Below are positions 4,851 through 59,963 of a stretch of DNA of 64,000 nucleotides, piece by piece. Every line of letters starts with the position of its first letter. Position 1 is the first letter of the stretch. The stretch is from Paraspadella gotoi (lineage: Eukaryota > Animalia > Chaetognatha), in assembly GCA_051294375.1 (NCBI GenBank), contig CM119263.1, forward strand, positions 9,974,432-10,038,431. Direction: 5' to 3'. Made by a program: the position numbers and the translations under genes. The notes beneath the pieces are model-generated. The model was not told the DNA's origin. It searched no databases and was given only the letters and a program-made list of their open reading frames with translations.

Positions 4851-7800
4851 AAAGTTTACTTTTTCTCATTATTTTCACTGAGGATGACATACTTATAAAC
4901 TTATTCACCAATTATCTCAATTATGAACATATAGGGTAGTGCGGGGTAATTCGGAACACTTTTGGAAGTAATCAAATTTTCGCATAGTAAATTTATTTTA
5001 AAAAAAAGTATTCATTTTTATCCTGCGGCCCCTAGAGGTCGCATTTTTTAAAAAAATAGAAAAGTGTTCCGTTTTACCCCACCCTGGGGTAAAACGGAAC
5101 AGTTGATAAATTATGTATAATTTTTTATAATATTACAAAAAATAATAACTAAAACACTATTATTCAAAACATAAAGCCTTTCATTGATGTTTTATGTATA
5201 AAAAAATGAAAATCTTATATTTTTAAGTGCTTAAAATGATTTTTAATACCATGTTCTCAGTTTTGCAAAATTATTGAATGACAATAGATACCAAATTTAT
5301 ATATATTTTATTTATCGTATTTTTGACTGAGTTTTTTATTTCCTTCCATTCCTGCATTTTGTCCCCAACTTCCTTTTCCTTGCCCCTTTTTTTATTTCCA
5401 ATGTTATTTTTTCTTATTCTTTTTATTTATCATTTATATTTATCTTTAAAAATTTAGCTTATTTTTATTTCCTTTTCAAAATATTTTTATTCATATTATT
5501 TTTATATTAATTTCATCTTAATTTTTTCTTTTACTAATTTTTTAACCATATTTAGGTGTTAAATTCCATTCCAAACTTTTTTATTGCTAAAAATAGATTT
5601 TTTTACTGTATTATTAATAGTATAATAATTTTTTCCACCTAATTATATAAAAAATGTTGCAAACTCTTATTATTACTGAGTAAATTATCACTAAAACTTT
5701 ATAAAAAGCATATTAGGTAACACAGAATACTTACTTTAGAGGTGTTCCGTTTTACCCCAATTTAATTGTAGCTATATAAAAAATAATTGAATTATTTTTT
5801 CGAAATAATATATACAATAACTAAAAAATAGTAGTCTCGTCTATCAGATATGAATATTCCATAGTCATATTACGTCAAATATGACAGTGACAGAGGCTTG
5901 AAAACGACTACTCAAAGACGAAATTTGACTAGCAGCTTTGAAATTGCTGCTGCAGCCGAATGCTGTAACTGCTGTAATGGAAAGTCAAGTTGGTGAAATA
6001 TTAAATGAACAAAAAAAATTATAAAATATCTATACACAATTTTTCTATTTCATTTTATATGTCAATGTTCCGAATTACCCCGCACTACCCTACTCGAACT
6101 ATATCAAAAATAAAATATACTTTTAATTAATATTCAACGTACTAAGTTTATAACCTGAGGATAATATCCCTGTTGAAGGGCCGGCAAATTGGGAGTAGGA
6201 ACTTTCGAAAACGAATTTTGCATTTGGGGCTGAGTCCGTGAAGCTTCCGTTCCTTCCAAATGCGAAGGAAAATGAGCTAATTGAGATCCAGCAGCTTGAG
6301 ATGAAGAACAATTCTGGGACAGTTGCAGAGTTTGTTGGTGCAGGGACATAGGGCCCGGCGTCGCCGAGTAAGAATTAACTACGTTCGCTTGAGCCTAAAA
6401 GAAAAATAATTTTAATGTAGTACAATAAGCAATTAATAAGATTTCCGACAGTTCTTAGAATAACTTGCATCTAATAAATACGTGCTATTTATGTATATAT
6501 ATTATATATATATACTATTCAGCTTTTAGGCAGCAACAACAACGAATACCTGCGAATGTACAGAGTGCGCTGCCTGAGCCATTTGTGCAACTTGAGCTAT
6601 TTGAACGGCCTGAGCCGCCTGAGCAGCTTGAGCCGCCTGAGCGGCTTGAGCGGCCTGTGCAGCTTGCGCTGCTTGTGCTGCTTGAGCAGCTTGAGCGGCC
6701 TGAGCAGCTTGCGCTGCTTGAGCTGCCTGAGCAGCTTGAGCCGCCTGAGCAGCTTGAGCCGCCTGAGCAGCTTGAGCCGCCTGAGCAGCTTGAGCCGCCT
6801 GAGCAGCTTGAGCCGCTTGACCTGCCTGAGCAGCTTGAACTGCCTGAGCAGCGTGAACAGCATGCGCAGCTTGAACAGCCTGAGCAGCTTGAGCAGCATG
6901 AGATGCCTGAGTTGCTTGAGCTCCCTGCGCTGCCGGAAACGCCAGAGCAGTCTGAGCGGCTTGGGCTTGCATAGAATACACATCACTGCTTCCTCCACGA
7001 TTGATGACAGGATATCCATAGGAATCTGATGGGATGAAAATTTTTTAAAATAAAATGATCCCTCCAGCAACAAAGTGCTATTTAATGTAAGTGGGACAGA
7101 CGGACAGATATACCGACCGACCAAAAAGTGACTCCATAACTAATAAAACTGTGGTAAGTCGCCTCAACGGCATATTTTTAGTCGGATCTCGGCTCTATAA
7201 TCTACTTCGTCGGTCCTACCCAAAATCGGTATGTCAGAACATCAAATTATGATAAATTATGCAAAAATATTAAAAGTATAGTTATCTTAGCAGACTTTAC
7301 TTTCAAAGAAAATTAATGAAAAAATCTTAAAAGCACAATGATACATTGCTTAATATAAGTAAGGGGAAAAAAAGAAGATTGATGCAATGATAACGAATTA
7401 TTGATGCAACGATAACGTGCTCATTAGAGTGGAGCACTCAAGAACAAAAAAATTATTTGAATGATCGAACAACGATATTTAGATGTGAGATAGTATGATT
7501 AACTAGTACAAAAAATATTTTGTTCATATTGTTTTAAGAACAAAATAATAAAATATGAAATATTTGTAATAATATTCTTATAAAATAATAAATTTTAAAT
7601 ATAATTTTTTCAAAACTTTTAATAAACATTCAGATTCTTCATAAAAAGTAAAATCAAAAATATAAAACATGTTATCAAAAATTCTGTCATCTTCAGCATT
7701 TAAAACGGGAAAAAAGATAAAAATTCAGAACTTTTTTATTCTCTGTAATAAAAACTTATATATGTTAAAACGTTTTGGTCATTTTTTGCGATCCAAACAT

Positions 7801-13800: not shown

Positions 13801-16800
13801 TTAAATAAATAATTAATGTAGTTGACATTTACATTTGATATAAAAAGAAAAAAGCATAATCAAATAGTGAAACAGGTTCCATCGAAACGGATGAACGGAT
13901 GAACATTAGAGTGGAGCACTGGGGAACATAAATTTTATTTGAGTGAACAAACAAGAATAATTAAAGATAGTATGATTAAGGAGTACAAAAAATATTTGGC
14001 TTATATTGTTTGGGGAACAGTATCATAAATTACAATATATTTATAGTAATATCCTTATAAAATTATAAATTTTCAAAATAATTTTTTTAAAATTTTTATT
14101 AAAGATTCTGATTTTTTATAAAAAGTTAGATAAAAAAAAAATATATATATATGTTGTTAAAAATTTCAATATCTTCAGCGTCAAAAAATTCTTTACTTTT
14201 TTATGGTTTGTAATAGAAACTATTATGATAAAACGTTTTGGTCATTTTTTGCAGCTTTAACCTAAAAATATCATATAACATATTTTACAAAAGTTTTTCA
14301 GTTTTTTCCGGCGAATCCGAAATTGTTCTTAAAATTAAAAAAATATTATTTTGAAATTTTATGATTTTTTAAGGATATTACTATAAAAAAATTTTAATTA
14401 ATGATACTATTATACAAATTTTTTTGGAAAAAGGACTTAATTATTTTTTATTACATATACAAAAGCAGCAAAAAAATATCGTTCCATCGCTCAATCTTTT
14501 TATCACTCCACCCTAATGGACATACAGATCATTTTTTTTAAATAATTTTTTAAAGACAGTTTGAGTTTAGTTTTGACTGATGAAGGCTTGAAATAAAGCC
14601 GAATTATGTCAAAATAAAATCGTAGTCAAAACTAAATTCAAACTGTTGAAGAGACAGTAATTATTGATAAGTGTTAATGACAGAACCGTTCAATGTAAGC
14701 AGTCCCTGAGCTTCGGATCAGGCTGTAACGCCATGTTACAGGCGGGTTAAGCGCCCCGTCCCTCTTAACTGCCAGACAACCACCGGGCTAGAACACCGGA
14801 CCTTTGGGTTGGGAGGCGAATGACTTGCCTCCGGCACCAATGGCCACTGATGAATGGTTGGTGGATTTTAGTCCACCATACTGTCTCTAATCGTCCCAAA
14901 CAACGAAAAGAAAGGATTTATATCACAATGAATATTTTTTTAATAATTCGATGTTCTAAGATAATATAAGTTATAGAAGGCTTCATATTATAAAATGAGG
15001 TACTGTGGCAGCAAGACTTAAAGCTGCCTCACTGCTGTCCGTCCTCAGCCTCGTCTCAATGGCAGAGCAGGCTAAATCATCTCATTCCATCCGTGCGTCC
15101 CGGGTTCAATCCCTGGGTATCCCGGTTCTGGCTTAAATGTGACGGTGCCGGTATAAACATGCCAGTGACAGGAGGCGGTCACTGAGGGTCCGCAGCCCCT
15201 ATGCCAGTTGGTGAGATACCCCGCGCCCCGGGTATCACAGGCTATCCTCCCGTTGCCATAAGTGGTGAGCCCTACTCTCGAACACGCAACCGCTGCGCAC
15301 CGTGCGCCCACGCTTACGTCGCTTAGGGTATGCATATCACGCCTATGCCCTACTTCTCTGGTAACGCTCCAGACTCGCTCGCTCGCTCACCCGCTCGCTC
15401 TCACTATAGCAATGAGATCAAAACCTTCTCTCAGACATCTCCTCAGGATTGAGGCCCCTGTGGAGAAGTCTGGTGGGGGGATCCTGTGGCAGCAAGACTT
15501 AAAGCTGCCTCACTGCTGTCCGTCCTCAGCCTCGTCTCAATGGCAGAGCAGGCTAAATCATTTCATTCCATCCGTGCGTCCCGGGTTCAATCCCTGGGTA
15601 TCCCGGTTCTGGCTTAAATGTGACGGTGCCGGTATAAACATGCCAGTGACAGGAGGCGGTCACTGAGGGTCCGCAGCCCCTATGCCAGTTGGTGAGATAC
15701 CCCGCGCCCCGGGTATCACAGGCTATCCTCCCGTTGCCATAGTACCCCTTTTTATGACCAGAATCTGTCCTCACCAAACTAACCAATTATGGTGGACTAA
15801 AATCCATTGGTGCCAGAGGCAAATCATTCTCCTTCCAACCAAAAGGTCCGGGGTTCAAGCCCAGTGGTCACCTAGCAGTTTAGTAGGACGGGGCGCTTAA
15901 CCCGCCTGTAACTCGGTGTTACAGCCTGATCCGAAGCTCACTGTCTCTTCACAATCAAAATTTATAAAATTTTACATACACAGTAGGGTGAAGTGAAAGT
16001 TTGGAATCAAAATTTAACAGTTATATCTTAAAAACTATCATATTAGTGAATACTAATCTATAATTATTTTTTTTTACAAATATAATAGCCCAGTCAGCTT
16101 ATTTAGTATATAATACTACCCTTATATAATATTAAAATTTCAAAATAGTTTTTTTTAAATTCTGAGAACAGATTCCTCATAGAAAGTTGATAAAAAAAAT
16201 ATAAACCTTTTTTAAAAATTATGTCACCGAGTAGGTTAAATCTTTAAAAAACTATATTTTGAAGCTGGAAATTAAAAATCGGTATCTTAAAAATAGTTTT
16301 TTACATTTTTGATCAACTTAATGAAAAAATTTTTAAAAAAGAATTATACTTTGTTATATCAACTTTTTGCAAGAAATCCAAATCGATCTTAAAATTTAAA
16401 AATTTGCATTTTGAAATTTTAGCCTATTATATACTTATTACTATATAATAAGTATAAGTATATATATAAGTGGTGCCCACTAATGTATAAAATTAAAAAA
16501 TAAATTTACCAAAGTATTTTTATTGGTTTTTATTTTCATGCTTATATACTAAATTTTAATTTTCTAAAATTTTATCATTTTCACATCACTCTAATATACA
16601 GTGGAGATCCTCATTATTATTATTAGTAAGAAAGAAAATTCCAATGCCCGCTAAGAAATTGTTTTGCTCCCTCCGTTCAATCGCCGGTCGCAAAACGTTA
16701 CCTTATTTGGAAGTATTTTTAGAATTATTTACTTTACAAATGTAAACCAAATTTTCTCTCTCTCTTGCCGTATAAAAATGAATGCCACTTTGTACAATTA

Positions 16801-19800
16801 GCCAATTCGATTCCATTCGCTTTTCTGATTTCAATAAATCGATTCATCTCATTTTGTTCGTCATTTTTATCTCGACCACCTCCACTAAACAGTCCTAATG
16901 ACAATATAAATGCAAGTATCAAGGCGAATTTTGATATTTAACCCTTGACAGGAGATACAGGGTCCTGGGGCTGAACCCCTGGGGGCCTGAAAGGGCTAAA
17001 AAAATTTTTTTCAGATTTTAATATTTTTAGTATCATCAGGTGCATTGACGTCTTAAACATGTAAAAAAGAATTTTAGAACTAAAATTAATGAATTTTTAA
17101 TAATTAAGCATTGTTTTAACAAGCATTGTTCATCGTTTTACTTCTAATTTTCCCAAATTATTCCAAATCTGATTTGAACAGCTGATGTTCATGAAGATGA
17201 AAATTAAGGTAAACTAACATTTTTGAGGTAATAAATACGTTTTTGTAGAAAAATAAACGTCGTGCAACTGTTCAAAACAAAAATAATGGAATAATTTGAA
17301 AAAATATTTGATCATTTTTTGTCCCAATTGGTGACCCCCCAGGGGGCCCATATCTCGGCTCAGGGTTCAAATATTGAAATTCGCCTCGATAGTTCTATTT
17401 GTATTCACATAGGGATCGTTCATACCAAATTTCAATAAATTTGGTCCAATAGTTTTCTCGGAACGTGTTCTGGTAACAAAAAAGGGGTACCTTATTTTAT
17501 AATATGAAGCCTTCTGTACTTAGGGACAAGATTATAGGTGGCGACCGACAAGCAGATCCGGCTAAAAAAATATTTTAGTTTTAAAATGAAAGACTATTTT
17601 TAAGGCAACTTTTTTCCACTCATTGCAAAGTCAAATCATAACCAATCAGTAGTACATATAGTATAATTAGTATATATAAATGATTTTGTTTTTACTACAA
17701 AAAAAATCTTTCAAATTAAAAAAATCTTCAAAGGTTTACAAATGACGATTTTTTTCTAGCGGTGGGTTGTGGTGCGTCACCTTGGACGTCAGTTTTGCAT
17801 ATATCAGATACTTTTAAAAAAGTTAAGAAATTTTCTATCGAAGGATATATGGTGAGTTAACTTTCATTAATGAGTTTCTAATTCTATGTAATAGATTTTT
17901 ACTTTGTGCTATCCGTTCTGGCTCCAGGGGTATTGTCATTTAATTTTTTTAAAAATTAATAATTATGGATAGACGACAAAAAAATTCAAAAACGGGCCCG
18001 ACCCTCTACGAGTCTACCTTGATGTCTCGATAGCGAGGGACGTGGACCTCTAGAGCGACTCATCACTGGTCGGGTTGTTCCACGAGGCACAGAGGAACCC
18101 CGCCATCCGGACGTTGGTGGACGGTAAGCGGAGGGACGGCCGGTTCTTGGGCCCACAGGTCGCATTGGAGTGGCTCCCGAAAGATATCCTCCGCGCAAGG
18201 CAGGATTTTCTGTTTGATTTCTCTGACCAGCTTTCACGGATTGAATTACTTGAACCGTCTGTATTTAAATAAATTAGCATGACTTTATTCTTGTATCAAG
18301 TAATAATTTCGATGGCAAAATGAATATTGCTATTCATATTGCTCGGTTAAAAAATAATGAAATACAACCTGAACATCTTCATCAGCAGGGGCCAGACCAC
18401 TGATACTTTCTTGACCCTGTCTTCCGCCACCTCCGCGTCCGCCACCTTTGAAGCTTCGACCTCGGTAACCGCTGCCGCCTCCGCTGAGGTAATCAAAAGA
18501 ACCGCAGCCGCCACCGCCTGAACCGTGATCTTCGTTTCTCGGCTCAGCATACTTGACTTCCACCTAAGTACGTAAAAAGTATGTACAATGTACAATTGTA
18601 CATAATTAAGTTTTGCCTAATCTTGGGTTTTCATCAGTTTTCTATGCCTTATGAATTTCTAAATTATTTTATTATAATACCAAATTTGGCTATTATCTTA
18701 CGACTAAGATTCTAGGAGAACCACTGACTTGCTTGCCGCAAATAGTGACAAATCTTTGTTTGAGGCAATTCTGAGCGGACGAATAATCTTCGAACGATAT
18801 GAATCCGAATCCCCGAGATTTGTTTTGTTCATCCGTCATTACTTTAACATCAATGATGTTTCCTGAGAGAATTTGAGTCATATAGAATTTAAAGCAAAGA
18901 CTGAACACTAGAGGACGAGATAACAATAGTGAAGTGTCGAAATTTAACAGATTTTTCGTATTCCATACCGAATCCGGAAAAAGCTTTTTGAACATCATTT
19001 TCACTAGCCGACGTCGGGACACCTCCAAGGAACAACCTTCTCAATGCTGGATCGTTCTCCGGCTGGAAAAAAAAATCGTTAAAGTATAGTTATCTCGCCA
19101 GACGTTACTGTCAAAGAAAATAAATAAAAAAATCCGGAAAAAAAAGATTGATGTAATTATTGATGCGATGATACCCCGTGAGCCAAATCCAGTGACACGA
19201 AAGAAATCATTGCCTTGGTTTACTGCATCGACATAAACAACTTTTTTTATTAGATAGAGAAAAGTTTGACGTTTTTTCTGTTAAAATTTTATTTAAATTG
19301 ATCTTTATTAACAACTTTAATTTTTTTTTTTTTGGCGAAGATGTCAAAGTCGTCAAATTGATGGCTCTTTTGAAATATCTTTGAAATATTATGCCACTAT
19401 GATAGGGAAGCAAGGTACTCAGCGAGTGAATAAACGAGACAGAGAGAGTCTTGATTGAAAGCTGTCATTATCTCGTAAGAGTGATGGAGGCTTTAAACCA
19501 CCAAAGACTATCTAAAGTTAGGGGTAAGATAATTTAATTATTAAATGGATGGATAATTTTTATATTGGTAGTACAATTTCATAAAACCATTATTTATCGG
19601 CAGTTTTGTTTATTAAAATTCGATAACATTGTTAGTAGACATTGTTATAATCCTTTCTTTTCGTTGTGTTTGTATCAGGAAAGACAGATTTTTGCATTTA
19701 ACAACGATTTTTTATTGACAGTTTTAGTCGTACATGTTTTGACTCTCTTTAAGAGTTGAGAGTAAAGTAAAGAGTAAAAAGAGTCGAAACATGTACAACA

Positions 19801-21372
19801 AACTGTCAATAAGAAATTGTTGTTAAATGCAAAAATCTGTCTTTTCTGATATCATTGTTGTAATGTACCTAATTATCCCTTTCAGCAAAAAAACGACCTT
19901 CGCTTCTTCCTTTTTTCTTTATTTCTTTCTTCCTCTTTATTTTCCCATCGGCCGCAGAAATGTTTAAAATTTACCAGCGCCGAAACAATCATCAAAATTA
20001 AGAATAATCACCATATCCATAACTCATTCTAAGTTATACATAAGGGGCACGAAAGCTTATTTATTAAATAAATGGATAATTTTTATATTGGTTGTACCAA
20101 TTTTATAACATAACCCTAAAATCTACCTATAACCTTAAATTTTTTCCCGAACTTATAAACTTTTATTACTTATTACATAATTAATCAATTAGTATTAGAT
20201 AAAATAAGATAAGAATAAATGAAATTATGGTGGACTAAAATCCACCAACCATTCATCAGCGGCCATTGGTGCCGGAGGCAAGTCATTCGCCTCCCAACCC
20301 AAAGGTCCGGGCTTCTAGCCCGGTGGTCGCCTAGCAGTTAAGAGGGACGGGGCGCTTAAACCCGCCTGTAACTTGGTGTTACAGCCTGATCCAAAACTCA
20401 GGGACTGCTTATATTGAAAGGTTCTGCCACTAACACAACAATAATTACTGTCTCTTCAAAATCTTATTTAATCAAATTCATAAACTTCGCTCTTTGATTT
20501 TTAATTGGACGCTGTTACCCCATTTTCACGAAGGCCAATAGTTTTTTGAATAAAATAGTCATTACAGAAGAGACAGTAATAATTGTTATGAGTTAATGAC
20601 AGAACCATTCAATATAAGCAGTCCCTGAGCTTAGGATCAGGCTGTAACACCGCGTTACAGGCGGGTTAAGCGCCCCATCCCTCTTAACTGCGAGGCGATC
20701 ACCAGGCGAGAACCCCGGACCTTTGGGTTGGGAGTAGAATGACTTGCCTCCTGCACCAATGTCCGCTGATAAAGGTTGGTGGATTTTAGTCCACCATATT
20801 ACTTTTAATTCATTAAGCATTTACGTACTCCCTTTTGTCGAGGGTTACAAGCTTTGGGATCGATCAATTTTCCATCCACTACATGCTTGGTTACAGCAAG
20901 AACCTTCTGTACGGTATTGATGTCTGGAATGAAAAAAGGTTACCTTGGCAATGTCATTGACTGTCAAATGCATACAACTCATATTATTTTCAAAAAATAC
21001 CTTTGAACGTAACAAAACCAAAACCACGGCTTTGGCCAGTTTCTGGATGTCTCATCACACTGACATCTGTAACAGGCCCATACTAAAAACAAATTGATAA
21101 GTATTAACATTAAATATAAGTGCATACAGAATAATGGTAAAATTATTTAACGTGAAAAGGTCACGCGACAGAAAAACAACTTGACCTTACCTTTTCAAAA
21201 TACTCTTGTAAAGGGTCTTCAAAAGTGTTCCATCCGAGGCCACCCACAAATATTTTGGCCGCATCTATGACAGGTAGCGGAGTTACAAGCGACGATTAGC
21301 AAAGACAACATGCTAAAAAAATACTTGGCACGTACCCGATACTCCCGCCGCGTACTTCTGCTTGCCAGCCAT
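1..21372 (-). CDS. DAZAP1: DAZAP1/Hrb27C(hrp48)-like RNA-binding protein, two RRMs plus a long Gly/Pro/Ser/Gln/Ala low-complexity tail; 3' end lies outside the window
   Basis: Manually spliced GT-AG exons with consistent phases: 21372-21336, 21264-21191, 21082-21001, 20923-20829, 19062-18969, 18862-18729, 18563-18369, 18258-18018, 13252-13115, 12983-12910, 12102-11838, 7025-6550, 6394-6155, 2702-2583, 354-207, 93-1. RRM1: KIFVGGL, SRGFGFVTF, HVVDGKLIDPKACNPR (DAZAP1/Hrb27C-type). RRM2: RLFLGGV, KSRGFGFISF, VEVKYAEPR. The RRM exons are secure; joining of the tail exons rests on phase compatibility and composition. Confidence 0.85.
775..1486 (-). mobile_element. DINE-1/HINE-like (Helentron-associated) element, family 1, partial
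   Basis: Terminal palindrome TATCGTCGCAA...TTGCGACGATA next to an A-run; body shared with other copies. Confidence 0.75.
2111..2154 (-). ncRNA. Minimal type I hammerhead ribozyme (Penelope-like element type)
   Basis: AACG-CTGATGA-A-GGCTT-gaaatg-AAGCC-GAAAC-AT-GTC-TGTT: intact core, stem III reduced to the palindrome ACATGT. Confidence 0.8.
4011..4056 (-). ncRNA. Minimal type I hammerhead ribozyme (Penelope-like element type)
   Basis: GACG-CTGAAGA-A-GGCTT-gcatcta-AAGCC-GAAAC-AT-GTA-CGTT; a stem-II-less inverted remnant follows at 4089-4114. Confidence 0.78.
4934..6090. mobile_element. Non-autonomous TA-flanked TIR DNA transposon (Tc1/mariner/pogo-type MITE)
   Basis: Perfect 25-bp TIR GGGTAGTGCGGGGTAATTCGGAACA, TA on both sides, internal TGTTCCGTTTTACCCC subterminal repeats. 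Confidence 0.88.
6560..6965 (-). repeat. Coding 9-bp tandem repeat encoding (Ala-Ala-Gln)n, about 40 units
   Basis: GCTCAAGCT/GCTCAGGCG-type units with synonymous variation inside exon 7025-6550. Confidence 0.9.
7935..8731 (-). mobile_element. HINE-like family 1 copy
   Basis: AAAATCTTAAAAGCATAAGGATCGTC(G/A)CAA end (subTIR plus small hairpin) and shared body. Confidence 0.8.
8773..10190 (-). mobile_element. HINE-like family 1 copy expanded by an internal 18-bp purine-rich minisatellite (about 8925-9480)
   Basis: Both family ends present; about 30 units of AAAGAATAGAAAGGAAAG. Confidence 0.8.
10706..11443 (-). mobile_element. HINE-like family 1 copy
   Basis: Both subTIRs (ATCGTCGCAATCG / CGATTGCGACGAT) present. 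Confidence 0.8.
13909..14513. mobile_element. TA-flanked MITE
   Basis: TA-GAGTGGAG ... CTCCACCC-TA ends; related copies start at 7426 and about 10220, and a similar element spans 15986-16591. Confidence 0.55.
14647..14880 (-). mobile_element. Solo LTR-like element, family A (tRNA-like head plus twister-like fold at 14698-14772)
   Basis: TATGGTGGA...CTGTCTCTTCA, 4-bp TSD CTGT, inserted into a hammerhead-bearing repeat. Core on minus strand: GA-CGG-GGCGCT-TAA-CCC-GC-CTGTAAC..GTTACAG-C-CTGA-TCCGAAGC-TCAG. Confidence 0.85.
15128..15207 (+). ncRNA. Twister ribozyme, type P5 permutation (5' LTR, family B)
   Basis: CTGGC(P5)-ttaa-ATGT(P2')-GA-CGG(T1')-TGCCGGTA(P1)-TAA-ACAT(P2)-GC(T2)-CAGTGAC..GTCACTG(P3)-AGGG-TCCGCAGC-CCCT(P4/L4)-at-GCCAG(P5). 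Predicted cut between U15154 and A15155. Confidence 0.85.
15609..15688 (+). ncRNA. Twister ribozyme, type P5 (3' LTR, family B)
   Basis: Identical to 15128-15207; predicted cut between U15635 and A15636. Confidence 0.85.
15788..15951 (+). mobile_element. Solo LTR-like element, family A, internally deleted
   Basis: Same termini, TSD CAAT (15784-15787 / 15952-15955), B-box GGTTCAAGCCC. Confidence 0.85.
16885..17517. repeat. Fold-back dispersed repeat whose end (TACAGAAGGCTTCATATTATAAAA) recurs at 14972, 29121 and 35802
   Basis: Internal inverted arms about 16915-16975 / 17335-17395; provides the empty site for the 15004 insertion. Confidence 0.6.
19648..19852. mobile_element. Palindromic Penelope-like relic (hammerhead core deleted)
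   Basis: AATCCTTTCTTTTCGTTGTGTT followed by inverted arms carrying GAGTCGAAACATGTAC. Confidence 0.6.
20226..20458 (+). mobile_element. Solo LTR-like element, family A
   Basis: TSD AAAT (20222-20225 / 20459-20462); tRNA-like segment GCGGCCA...TGGTCGC; L4 loop mutated to TCCAAAAC. Confidence 0.85.
20566..20798 (-). mobile_element. Solo LTR-like element, family A
   Basis: TSD TTAC (20562-20565 / 20799-20802); lies inverted relative to the 20226 copy. Confidence 0.85.
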
Positions 21373-22083: not shown

Positions 22084-23620
22084 ATGGAAAAAATTAAAAA
22101 CGGAATTGAAATCCGTGACATTCACTTCGGATGCGATTATACCTTTTGTCCAGCCGTTTTTCACGACCCAAGACTTTTAAAAATCCATAGAAAGAAAATT
22201 CACGAAAATTCGGTAATAGAGGGAGACAAATGTTAAATTCCGCCTAATCAAGGCATCCTGTATTTCGAAGACAATTTATATATTTATACACATGAATAGA
22301 TTACTATTTTTATTACGAACACAGTTAATTCGATAACATTAAATATATCAAGTAATTTTGACGTTATTGATGAGACTACATTATATCCCCACAATGAAGT
22401 GACCGGGAGAATATGGGGTAAAGATGGTTGTCCCCACACTTAAAGAAGTTTAAAATCTAGATGTTATCGATTAATTCCACATTTATTCCAGGAGGAAACA
22501 CATGAGATGAAAAAAAAATACGACGAATTTTATAAATATTGGGATTCTAAAACAAAACTATCTGCACAAAATTTGAAAAAACATTTCCCAGGAATTATAG
22601 AATCTGCGCAGAACATCTTTGATGAAATATCGCAACCGGTGACAAAACAAAATATGTTGTGTTTAATACTAACCAATATACTAACTTTAGTCTTAGTTAT
22701 ATTTTTTTCCGCAGAATTTTGGAAATACAACTGTTCACCAGCATCAAATTGGTTATAAGACGGCGGAGCCAGAAATATCAGTTATTGCAAACAAAACAAA
22801 CATTTGTATTAAGTCTTTAGACCTCCAAGCAAAATCATCTAAGTCAGAATCATCAGTGACAGCAGTCCCTAAAACTAAAGGGGAATCTGGTAGAATTAAA
22901 AAAAGTAGGAAAAAAGAAAACCATTGCACAATTAAACAAGAAAAATATATAAAAATTATACGTTTTTTATATATACTTTGCAAAAGCCTTATGCCTAATA
23001 AAACAAAATGTTTTATAACAAACAATCAAATAACCAAAAGAAATCAACCGTCTGTGTTCAACAACTTAATAAAAGGTGAATATCTTGAAAAAGAAATTGC
23101 TAAACTGATGAATCAATTAAAGGTAGCAAGAAAGAACTTTTTACAATCAAGGGCTGAAGTTCTAATGACCAAAGAAAAAAACTGCGAAAGAATCAAGGGG
23201 AAAATACCTGACACTTCTGGCCAAAAAATGGTCAAAAAGGCAAAGTCCACCTTTGAAGCAGTTTTAGAACCAACCGCGAGTAATAAAAACCTAAATGCAA
23301 GTATACCGTCTTCCAATCTGCACAAACAATACAGCCAAAGAACAAAATCATTCACAAATAATTGTAATTCTAATTCAAAATTGAGCAATTCCGAAGCTAC
23401 GCAGCCTTTCCACTCAAAAGCAGCCTTGTTAAAAGCGAAAAAAACTGACAATCGAATGGAAGAAGTTGAAAAATGGCGCAAGAAGGACGAGCAGCGTCTA
23501 TTGTTTCAACAAAAAGAGGCATGCAGAAGGCGAAGCCAGTTAAATCAAATATTGAAAATGAGAAGCTTAAAGAAATTGGCCAATTCCAATCCCATGGAGA
23601 AAACCGAGATCAATCTGTAA
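22084..23620 (+). CDS. Putative protein with one N-terminal C2H2 zinc finger and a Lys-rich coiled-coil-like C-terminus (about 424 aa)
   Basis: FGCDYTFCPAVFHDPRLLKIHRKKIH fits C-x4-C-x3-F-x5-L-x2-H-x4-H. Phase-compatible GT-AG exons 22084-22231, 22325-22398, 22492-22638, 22715-23620; the last contains the 254-aa ORF. Exon model is tentative. Confidence 0.55.
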
Positions 23621-25228: not shown

Positions 25229-58319
<33,091 letters not shown>

Positions 58320-58460: not shown

Positions 58461-59276
58461 TTAAATGTTAAAATGAAAAAATTCACGTCGACAACAACTC
58501 GGTATTATCCAAATAGAAAGCGACGCAATTATTTTTCTCCACCAGTGAACCTTTGTATAATTAAACTTTGTATATTTTACATGCCTCAGATCCGCAAGAG
58601 TCGAAAAAGAACGAGAAAGGGATGGAAAATCAGTGAGATCTTCGCAACTCATGAGGCTGTCAACAGTCGCCTGCAATTGGTCCACAAACTCCGTATCGAT
58701 TGTTTTATTTCGTTTACGACTAGACGGTTCCACGCAAGTCGACAAGGAGCGAGTCGCCGAAAGTATTTCAGGAATCGAGTCAACGTTCGGGTCGGCTGAC
58801 TCGTTTCTCATCGTATCAGATCTAACACGGCGAGCATTGGTAAAGATTCGATTTTCTAATTCTTTACTGTAGTTTTCCCACGCTATTATCCATTTAGAAA
58901 CCGATATGCGTCTCCAAGTTACTTTCTGAGAGGTTTTACTGGACGATTCACCAGAGTAGGAATTGCACATGACTTTGAAAGTTTTAATTTGATTGAAGTC
59001 ACTCACGTTTATGCAAGACATAGCCGAGGAGTTAATAAAATCCGAATTATCACTGTCCGACATATGGTCGCACGAGACACTCAATTTGGAACATCGTCGT
59101 TTATCATTGAAGACAGGATTGATTTTAGGATAGTTTTTTTTGAAAACTTTGCTTTGTTCGAATGAAAAATCTTTTTTCAGTTTCGACATGTCGAAAATCT
59201 TGATACAAGTCACAGATTTAGAAGTTACTATTGGTAGCAAGCAAAAATTTTGTTTTTGCATTGTGACAATGAACAA
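58461..59276 (-). CDS. Hypothetical Ser-rich protein or alternative 5' exon upstream of SRPK
   Basis: 271-codon ORF in unique, less AT-rich sequence; no recognisable domain, and no phase-compatible donor to the 58319 acceptor was found. Confidence 0.35.
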   Translation of the reverse strand: MFIVTMQKQNFCLLPIVTSKSVTCIKIFDMSKLKKDFSFEQSKVFKKNYPKINPVFNDKRRCSKLSVSCDHMSDSDNSDFINSSAMSCINVSDFNQIKTFKVMCNSYSGESSSKTSQKVTWRRISVSKWIIAWENYSKELENRIFTNARRVRSDTMRNESADPNVDSIPEILSATRSLSTCVEPSSRKRNKTIDTEFVDQLQATVDSLMSCEDLTDFPSLSRSFSTLADLRHVKYTKFNYTKVHWWRKIIASLSIWIIPSCCRREFFHFNI

Positions 59277-59963
59277 TATTTAGATATTATTTATCAACCC
59301 AAACTTTAGCTTCGGAACTTTAAAAAGAAGTTCTGAAGATAATAAAAAATTAAATTCTTACCACAAGAGCCCGAGTCAAATAAAGAACATATATTTTTTT
59401 TTTTCAATGATGCACGGATACCCACATTTGAGTTATAAGGACAGAAATAAATAAATAAAAACGTCCAGCCGAATGTCCTTTTGACTTCATTTTTTTGTTT
59501 ATAAAATTGATCCAACCAAACGTCTCTTTACATATGTCAGAAAAAGAAACGTGGCTTCAATTTCGAAAAAATCGAGATGAGGGAGCGAACGTGAAATACG
59601 ACTCTGCTCCTCAGCGGATTCAATCGAGGACAACACAATTAACTCAGCTTGAGCCTTTCAATTTCATGAATAAACTCTGGACGCGTTTCGCACCAGAAAT
59701 TTTGAGTTTTTACGGACTGCACGTTTGGCTTATTGCAACAAATATCCAGTAGGCGTTCCGTCAAGTTTCTAAGCTAATATACTTAACGGTCTCCGCTCGA
59801 AGAGTTCTTTTGTAGATATTTTGACGAAACCAAAACAAAAGGGAAATCCTGAATAATCCTTTTTTCTTGACTCATCGAAATTTTCAAAGAAAAATGATAA
59901 TAACCTTCAAGACCTTCAAGACGGGGGTCACAAAAAGCGTTGTCACAAAAGAAGCCATACCTT

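Follow-up and report, generated by a model that had tools for sequence, protein, structure and literature searches.

A miniature LTR retrotransposon with twister ribozyme motifs and RNA polymerase III boxes in the chaetognath Paraspadella gotoi, a likely LTR retrozyme

How does a retroelement of 738 bp that matches no protein family, and that carries in each of its long terminal repeats (LTRs) the apparent parts of a twister ribozyme, propagate in an animal genome? The question is raised by an element at positions 15004-15741 (plus strand) of a 64,000-nucleotide stretch of the Paraspadella gotoi genome, here called the window (assembly GCA_051294375.1, contig CM119263.1, positions 9,974,432 to 10,038,431), to which an earlier note made from the letters alone had drawn attention. 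Our analysis indicates a non-coding miniature LTR retrotransposon that combines internal RNA polymerase III (Pol III) boxes with twister motifs and that likely moves as an LTR retrozyme, a reading to which we assign a rough probability of 60%.

Sequence comparison divides the element into a 5′ LTR with TG...TA ends (15004-15260), an internal region of 224 bp (15261-15484), and a 3′ LTR (15485-15741). The two 257-bp LTRs differ at a single base (15081, C/T; 99.6% identity), and the extent of the element, the LTR length, and the near-identity of the LTRs agree with the earlier note, which had described a 738-bp non-coding element. A related copy, A2, ends in CA where the 5′ LTR ends in TA. GTAC stands on both sides (15000-15003 and 15742-15745), the note having likewise reported a 4-bp duplication. 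The flanking sequence is itself a repeat, and a paralogue of it in the window (17450-17530, minus strand) has both flanks around one GTAC; because this paralogue represents the empty site, the 4-bp target-site duplication (TSD) is genuine. The internal region is without a protein family match, and the three tested frames of these elements, two of them from the subfamily of the present element (subfamily A), had no Pfam match above cut-off. A coding role was rejected on that result and because the long frames of subfamilies A and B do not lie in register. With two LTRs, a length below 1 kb, no coding capacity, and a TSD, subfamily A has these defining features of a terminal-repeat retrotransposon in miniature (TRIM). 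Its GC content is 54%, against 34% in the window. The purine tract seen by the earlier note is present at 15460-15484 as a candidate polypurine tract (PPT), in the form of a run of six G and an A followed by TCC, and it is modest (17 of 25 purines). RNAfold predicts a hairpin that opens the LTR (15007-15028) and is retained in subfamilies A, B, and C despite differing sequences; a further hairpin is predicted 3′ of the ribozyme (15215-15236).

Within each LTR the parts of a P5-permuted twister follow one another in the order P5a, P2b, GA, T1′, minimal P1, UAA, P2a, GC, P3, P4 with an eight-base L4, and P5b. The first copy spans 15128-15207 and has its predicted cut between U15154 and A15155, with G15141 as putative general base and A15155 as putative general acid (the roles of these nucleotides in twister are described in PMC11662667); the second, located by a descriptor, spans 15609-15688 in the 3′ LTR, with its predicted cut between U15635 and A15636. 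All parts lie on the plus strand. In copy 1 the helices are P5 (15128-15132 with 15203-15207), P2 (15137-15140 with 15157-15160), P3 (15163-15169 with 15178-15184), P4 (15186-15188 with 15197-15199), and a minimal P1 of two base pairs and a tetraloop (15146-15153), an 8-mer that is also self-complementary. The register of P5 in A was taken from RNAfold, the automatic pick having given a wobble-rich wrong register. Between the helices lie the GA strand (G15141-A15142) and the UAA (15154-15156), and L4 forms the pseudoknots T1 (15143-15145 with 15190-15192) and T2 (GC/GC; 15161-15162 with 15195-15196). Across copies the helix lengths are 4 bp for P2 (in B with one C-A), 3 bp for P4, 7 bp for P3, and 5 to 6 bp for P5, and P1 in the four aligned copies consists of 2 bp and a 4-nt loop. 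The U^AA cleavage-site L1 and the GA strand are present in A (two copies) and in B (three strict matches, one of them in a duplication), and the 3-bp T1 and the GC/GC T2 are 100% paired in all four rows of the alignment described below. Every part that the earlier note had named for the two LTRs was found, in order and in the P5 permutation; its account had left out that P1 is only 2 bp with a 4-nt loop and P4 only 3 bp. When ~1,900 natural P1-type twisters were assayed, imperfections in P1, P2, and most of P4 were tolerated, P1 being dispensable, and the catalytic A and the pseudoknots were sensitive (PMC11662667), a pattern that agrees with what the LTR twisters retain.

The strict descriptor, which was built on a twister consensus consistent with the domain table of PMC8501958, matched five sites in the window, every one of them in LTRs of this element family. 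It found nothing in 100 shuffled windows or in control loci totalling 90,299 bases, and it matched 1 of 20,000 mononucleotide and 0 of 20,000 dinucleotide shuffles of the LTR; these chance figures are flattering, because the descriptor was written after the motif had been seen.

The motif recurs in sister subfamilies, whose LTRs are 57-65% identical between A, B, and C. Subfamily B has a full element of 744 bp at 39421-40164 (minus strand) with LTRs 96.5% identical, a TSD of ACAC, an intact twister in both LTRs, and a predicted monomer of 488 nt; its duplicate at 44688-45450 (plus strand) lies within a 9.3-kb inverted duplication and is not independent. Subfamily C is represented by a solo LTR, C1 (38086-38338, plus strand; duplicated near 46530-46782), in which the twister core has decayed (GA to AA and UAA to AAA), and by a second LTR, C2 (38661-40480, minus strand). 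C2 is split within its twister by A2, an A-type element (38780-40343, plus strand) that is itself broken by the B element. The cores are intact in the two young elements, whose LTRs are 99.6% and 96.5% identical, and the decayed core is that of a solo LTR.

For covariation we aligned four copies from three subfamilies (A, two of B, and C1); second copies were left out because 32834-42152 is repeated in inverted orientation at 98.4%. Pairing is retained in 93.9% of 82 cells, and at 6 of 21 pairs both partners have changed: P2 and T1 contribute two such pairs each, P1 and P4 one each. Two of the three T1 pairs belong to this class, and T1 covaries across all three subfamilies. The covariation score was 0.437; slid controls stayed at or below 0.111, and none of 500 shuffles attained the score. 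P5 was omitted from the score because it is out of register; aligned by hand, it pairs in each subfamily with different sequences. By its predicted fold and its covariation, and not by its Rfam score, the motif counts as a twister.

Two observations on this group of elements may be recorded in their own right. The split in C2 falls at T1′/P1, and the nest of three elements at 38661-40480 hints at a hot spot or a preference in insertion; in the 4-bp targets observed, purine and pyrimidine alternate. The internal region of B contains three tandem copies of a hairpin-forming unit of ~30 nt (39760-39870), to which a single segment of A near 15330-15350 is related.

Evidence for further copies came from contigs of four public runs, out of 17 listed, aligned to the element, with a variant threshold of 5%. 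In run X1, 2,505 contigs fit the element. Unlike flanks accumulate at the LTR ends (15004, 15261, and 15485), and contig joints skip 741-751 bases, from ~15002 to ~15745; these dissimilar flanks and joints show a mobile family of many copies. None of the 27 variant rows falls on GA, T1, UAA, or P2. Anatomy, covariation, and copies together support the TRIM-type LTR architecture with a P5 twister in each LTR that the earlier note had put forward. In run X10, which bears a second organism label, low-depth contigs near-identical to A are accompanied by B-type ends, for which a close relative, contamination, and transfer are candidate readings. The family pattern had 0 matches in metagenome and viral contigs.

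Upstream of the twister, the LTR contains a tRNA-type A box (15060-15071, plus strand) that matches the consensus exactly and, 31 nt past it, a B box in a T-arm-like hairpin (15103-15113, plus strand). Such a pair occurs in exact form in 0 of 20,000 shuffles and, when one mismatch is allowed in each box, in 29 of 20,000. ARAGORN found no full tRNA in the element. Downstream of the predicted start near 15050, A has no run of four T before 15749. As an argument for Pol III read-through this lack is weak and was set aside, since it is shared by 985 of 5,000 shuffled versions of A. The TGG that the earlier note had likened to a primer-binding site (PBS) starts 2 nt past the 5′ LTR, at 15263, and opens a two-block site for tRNA-Trp (15263-15291, plus strand) in which the acceptor end is followed by the T arm. 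Block 1 agrees with the tRNA-Trp end printed in Fig S2 of PMC10886601 at 11 of 13 bases, and block 2 is complementary at 14 of 14 positions to the T arm of the most frequent tRNA-Trp(CCA). A pattern derived from this site matched at least 126 metagenome loci; among the matches listed, 96 of 129 are tRNA-Trp(CCA) genes, and nothing resembling the element appears among the at least 126 tRNA loci listed. Fig S2 of PMC10886601 lists a Trp PBS for Gypsy-32_NVi and Helenus-2_SyJa. Neither the A and B boxes, nor the two-block tRNA-Trp site, nor the sister subfamilies had been mentioned in the earlier note.

These features can be assembled into a cycle. Pol III would start the transcript near 15050, and the twisters would cut at U15154^A15155 and U15635^A15636, releasing a predicted unit-length RNA of 481 nt (15155-15635, plus strand) whose extent is given by the two cut sites. 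Twister cleavage leaves 5′-OH ends and ends that bear a 2′,3′-cyclic phosphate. Renewed pairing in P5, P2, and T1 between the half-ribozymes at either end of the monomer would bring these ends together, and RtcB or self-ligation would close the 481-nt monomer into a circle. RtcB joins ribozyme-made ends in the Tornado system (10.1101/2023.07.11.548538), and plant LTR retrozymes provide a precedent for the circle (PMC4918200). A Gypsy-type helper reverse transcriptase would then copy the circle from a tRNA-Trp primer. The circle would stand in for the missing R repeat: reverse transcription would pass one unit and rebuild two LTRs, and the integrase of the helper would insert the new copy. The step to a circle follows an argument made for plant retrozymes (PMC4918200), namely that a monomer without an R repeat needs to be circular to yield a two-LTR copy. 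The monomer of the subfamily B copy B1 is predicted to be unusually stable (z -3.08; 0 of 40 shuffles).

Several results, concerning first the ribozyme and then the circle, weigh against this retrozyme cycle. The earlier note had proposed a covariance-model search with Rfam and had listed the lack of a hit among its own grounds for refutation, and this search gave no match at Rfam thresholds: the window yields no gathering-level match, a 951-bp query (14900-15850) nothing at E≤10, and an 801-bp query no twister match at E≤10. Narrowing the query to the 106-bp core after these blank results gave, as the best of 4,227 Rfam families, a weak and partial match to twister-P1 (RF03160) that spans P3-P4-L4 only (14.9 bits versus a gathering score of 67.2; E 0.76). 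The B element had only chance matches in Rfam, and no hammerhead match was found in the element. A twister-compatible nested fold lies above the minimum free energy by 7.0 kcal/mol for the core and by 9.5 kcal/mol in context, in a calculation that leaves pseudoknots unscored. The covariation is drawn from only four related rows in three subfamilies, with the structure read from the same sequences. Among the run contigs, one from X9 (~5% of depth) carries changes at one guanine of P4 and one of T2, and P1 varies at each of its ends at up to ~10%.

The twister itself has to be weighed as well. The helices might belong to another conserved LTR structure that matches a twister by accident, as the post hoc descriptor and the negative Rfam result at threshold would allow; we regard this as highly improbable, given 0 of 20,000 dinucleotide shuffles, 0 matches in 90 kb of control DNA, and a T1 that covaries in three subfamilies. 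Alternatively, the motif could be a genuine twister that was captured, for example from the head of an RTE element or a short interspersed nuclear element (SINE), and is now an idle passenger in an ordinary Helenus-type TRIM. The minimal P1, the absence of an Rfam-level score, the unfavourable predicted fold, and the decayed C1 core are consistent with such a passenger, and twisters are known at RTE 5′ ends (PMC8501958); yet the catalytic nucleotides and both pseudoknots are retained, with compensatory changes, across LTRs of 57-65% identity, and we judge idleness improbable. The P1 8-mer suggests a further scheme, in which cleavage takes place only in a domain-swapped dimer joined through this self-complementary segment, as in the minimal Penelope hammerheads, and is thereby tied to full-length transcripts. 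The 8-mer forms self-duplexes of -10.9, -11.0, and -9.8 kcal/mol in A, the 3′ LTR of B1, and C2, respectively. These are, however, just three of five copies, a short hairpin already gives 6 of the 8 pairs, the ends of P1 vary among copies, and P1 is reported to be dispensable in twisters (PMC11662667), all of which leaves obligate dimerisation with little probability.

With regard to the circle, the second twister of a once-cut A transcript is predicted to have its P3 unformed (0.03), and the stability of the A monomer is ordinary (z -1.39, -1.22, and -1.04). The 64-kb window holds no helper element. Subfamilies B and C have one box each, with no A+B pair even when one mismatch is allowed in each box. 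The PPT is weak, most so in B (13 of 25 purines, compared with 17 of 25 in A). A helix predicted between a U5 segment (15237-15251, plus strand) and the PPT with the start of the second LTR (pair probabilities 0.78-1.0) may explain this degeneracy; it is predicted in subfamily B as well, with other sequence (B1 pair probabilities 0.4-0.7).

The folding predictions also bear on an alternative in which the twister is active and serves only for trimming. The copy in the 5′ LTR would set the 5′ end of the RNA or release the unit from a host transcript that reads through it, the 3′ copy would be blocked, and the template would be linear, with a normal R repeat of 106 nt from the cut site to the LTR end and no circle. 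In agreement with this, P3 of A is predicted to form in the nascent Pol III RNA (0.85-0.93) and to remain unformed in RNA with the LTR start upstream of it (0.02-0.03). Twister variants process 5′ ends in Perere-3 (PMC8501958), and ordinary Helenus elements and Cassandra manage without a circle (PMC10886601). Against this, the blocking duplex is no stronger than in shuffles (z 0.06, 0.06, -0.77, and -0.45) or in cross-family pairs, the B circle is predicted to retain P3 (0.83), and trimming alone adds little because the Pol III start already supplies a 5′ end and an R repeat. We consider trimming without a circle unlikely, though the least improbable of the alternatives, and keep the LTR retrozyme as the preferred reading. 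A related idea, that the LTR start has been selected as a blocker of the ribozyme in the circle, was discarded, the duplex energies matching those of shuffles and cross-family pairs.

The surroundings of the element are those of an intron-rich, AT-rich stretch that contains exons of an SRPK kinase (104 bits to human SRPK2 vs 66 bits to yeast Sky1) and of an RRM protein. Among 10 matches of a homology search, a single one had a named source, an ostracod protein at 55%. The element stands between the RRM exons (~18.7-19.1 kb) and a putative exon at ~12 kb, likely in an intron and in antisense orientation. The 9.3-kb inverted duplication (32834-42152 and 42706-51989; 98.4%) lies inside the SRPK gene and includes exons; one arm is rich in small indels, and it is possibly an assembly artefact. 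Two inverted copies of a SINE-like dispersed repeat with a B-box-like motif flank the element; copies of this repeat are seen at 14646-14880 (minus strand), 15788-15958 (plus strand), 20226-20459, 20567-20798, and 27445-27593. At 14556-14646 a long hairpin (a 23-bp inverted repeat) surrounds a degenerate core resembling the minimal Penelope-type hammerheads, which is one base off consensus and without a match in the strict scan; a related stretch lies near 2070-2150. Elsewhere there is a GC-rich tandem repeat at 6526-7044 with several open frames, Ala/Gln-rich on the minus strand, and two long open frames occur at 58464-59279 (minus strand, 272 aa) and 22697-23620 (plus strand, 307 aa).

Is such an element already on record? 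We found no twister-bearing LTR retrozyme or TRIM in the literature, a search in which Repbase, Dfam, and the original twister alignments were outside scope, and a prior mention in those sources is possible. The earlier note had known of no animal LTR retrozyme that uses a twister, and the literature bears it out in that only plant, hammerhead-based examples came to light. In the portions of these sources available to us, LTR retrozymes are of plants and use hammerheads, or twisters appear unlinked to LTRs (PMC4918200, PMC7229834, PMC7761336, PMC5680766, PMC11722881, PMC6765202, PMC10085705, PMC12029980, 10.1101/2022.07.19.500677, and 10.64898/2026.07.22.740005). Reviews and a 2026 preprint set LTR retrozymes with type III hammerheads in plants against non-LTR repeats with type I hammerheads in animals. 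Neither rule of this division holds for a twister-bearing LTR element in an animal. If the LTR retrozyme reading is true, the element would be the first LTR retrozyme based on a twister and would parallel in nature the Tornado circularisation system; it would show that one class of ribozyme can replace another and that selection acts on the circle. It would also give twister, whose biological roles are barely known (PMC8501958), a second role that can be tested, and suggest how the RNA ends are set in a Pol III TRIM whose LTR contains no terminator. The 738-bp unit is fully testable and provides a natural design for RNA circularisation with a single ribozyme.

Among known systems, the LTR retrozymes of plants (Cervera et al. 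2016, PMC4918200) resemble the element in its proposed function. Like the present element they are non-coding LTR elements with a ribozyme, here a putative one, in each LTR, and a PBS, a PPT (a modest candidate here), a 4-bp TSD, and high GC are common to both, as is the consequence that cleavage would strip the R repeat and demand a circle. The differences lie in the ribozyme (twister versus type III hammerhead), the primer (tRNA-Trp versus tRNA-Met), the monomer (481 nt versus 600-800), and the host (animal versus plant), all by the account in PMC4918200, and in the promoter, for which tRNA-type Pol III boxes contrast with the Pol II suggested for the plant retrozyme NbRZ1 (PMC12029980). By its proposed cycle the element functions like an LTR retrozyme and is outside the family as defined, which carries a hammerhead and a tRNA-Met site.

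In its build the element resembles animal Helenus, the name given by Kojima in 2024 to TRIMs that carry tRNA-type boxes, duplicate 4 bp of their target, and use a Gypsy-type tRNA primer (PMC10886601). The Helenus group, TRIMs/TRIMp3, shares with the element a length below 1 kb and A and B boxes in the LTR, and it shares with the A and B elements a 4-bp TSD (GTAC and ACAC) and a PBS for a tRNA 3′ end in common with Gypsy (PMC10886601). By testable features subfamily A sits among these animal Helenus TRIMs, the published sequences having been compared by eye only. Helenus is probably of multiple origin, and its Pol III transcription and Gypsy helper are likewise proposed ones (PMC10886601). Its LTRs differ past the B box, where most animal Helenus have ~20-70 nt by eye (PMC10886601) and the element has 147 nt including the twister. 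The word twister has 0 occurrences in the available text of PMC10886601, where ribozymes figure only in a reference, and no twister was noticed by eye in the animal Helenus consensus sequences available from its supplement. Two Helenus families of Synergus wasps, Helenus-2_SyJa and Helenus-2_SyUm, are exceptions: like the element they have a tRNA-Trp PBS, a TGTGG start, a 4-bp TSD, and a long LTR (277 bp) with a putative ribozyme past the B box, noted by eye. Inspected by eye, this candidate reads as a type III hammerhead whose loops 1 and 2 are complementary, and it is unannotated in PMC10886601 as far as that source was available; a 2020 review alludes to insect type III hammerheads and RTE twisters as work in preparation. 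We put at about even odds the view that animals have unrecognised LTR retrozymes in the form of Pol III Helenus-type TRIMs, with an interchangeable ribozyme past the B box, a twister in the three subfamilies here and a type III hammerhead in the two Synergus families, and a circular RNA.

Other ribozyme-bearing elements are more distant. The twister variants of Schistosoma Perere-3/RTE (Liu et al. 2021, PMC8501958) likewise belong to an animal retroelement and have a weak P1; unlike the present element, Perere-3/RTE is an autonomous non-LTR element with a single P1-type ribozyme at its 5′ end and, as described there, lacks an LTR, a PBS, and a circle. The non-LTR retrozymes of metazoans (PMC7229834; 10.64898/2026.07.22.740005) are also animal, non-coding, and composed of ribozyme-bounded units, and they form circles, whereas for the present element the circle is only predicted; they differ further in their tandem type I hammerheads, in the lack of LTR, PBS, and PPT in these accounts, and in their link to Penelope. 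The engineered Tornado system (10.1101/2023.07.11.548538) corresponds to the proposed cycle in its Pol III promoter, terminal ribozymes, and RtcB ligation, and it departs from the element in being synthetic and immobile and in having a designed ligation stem.

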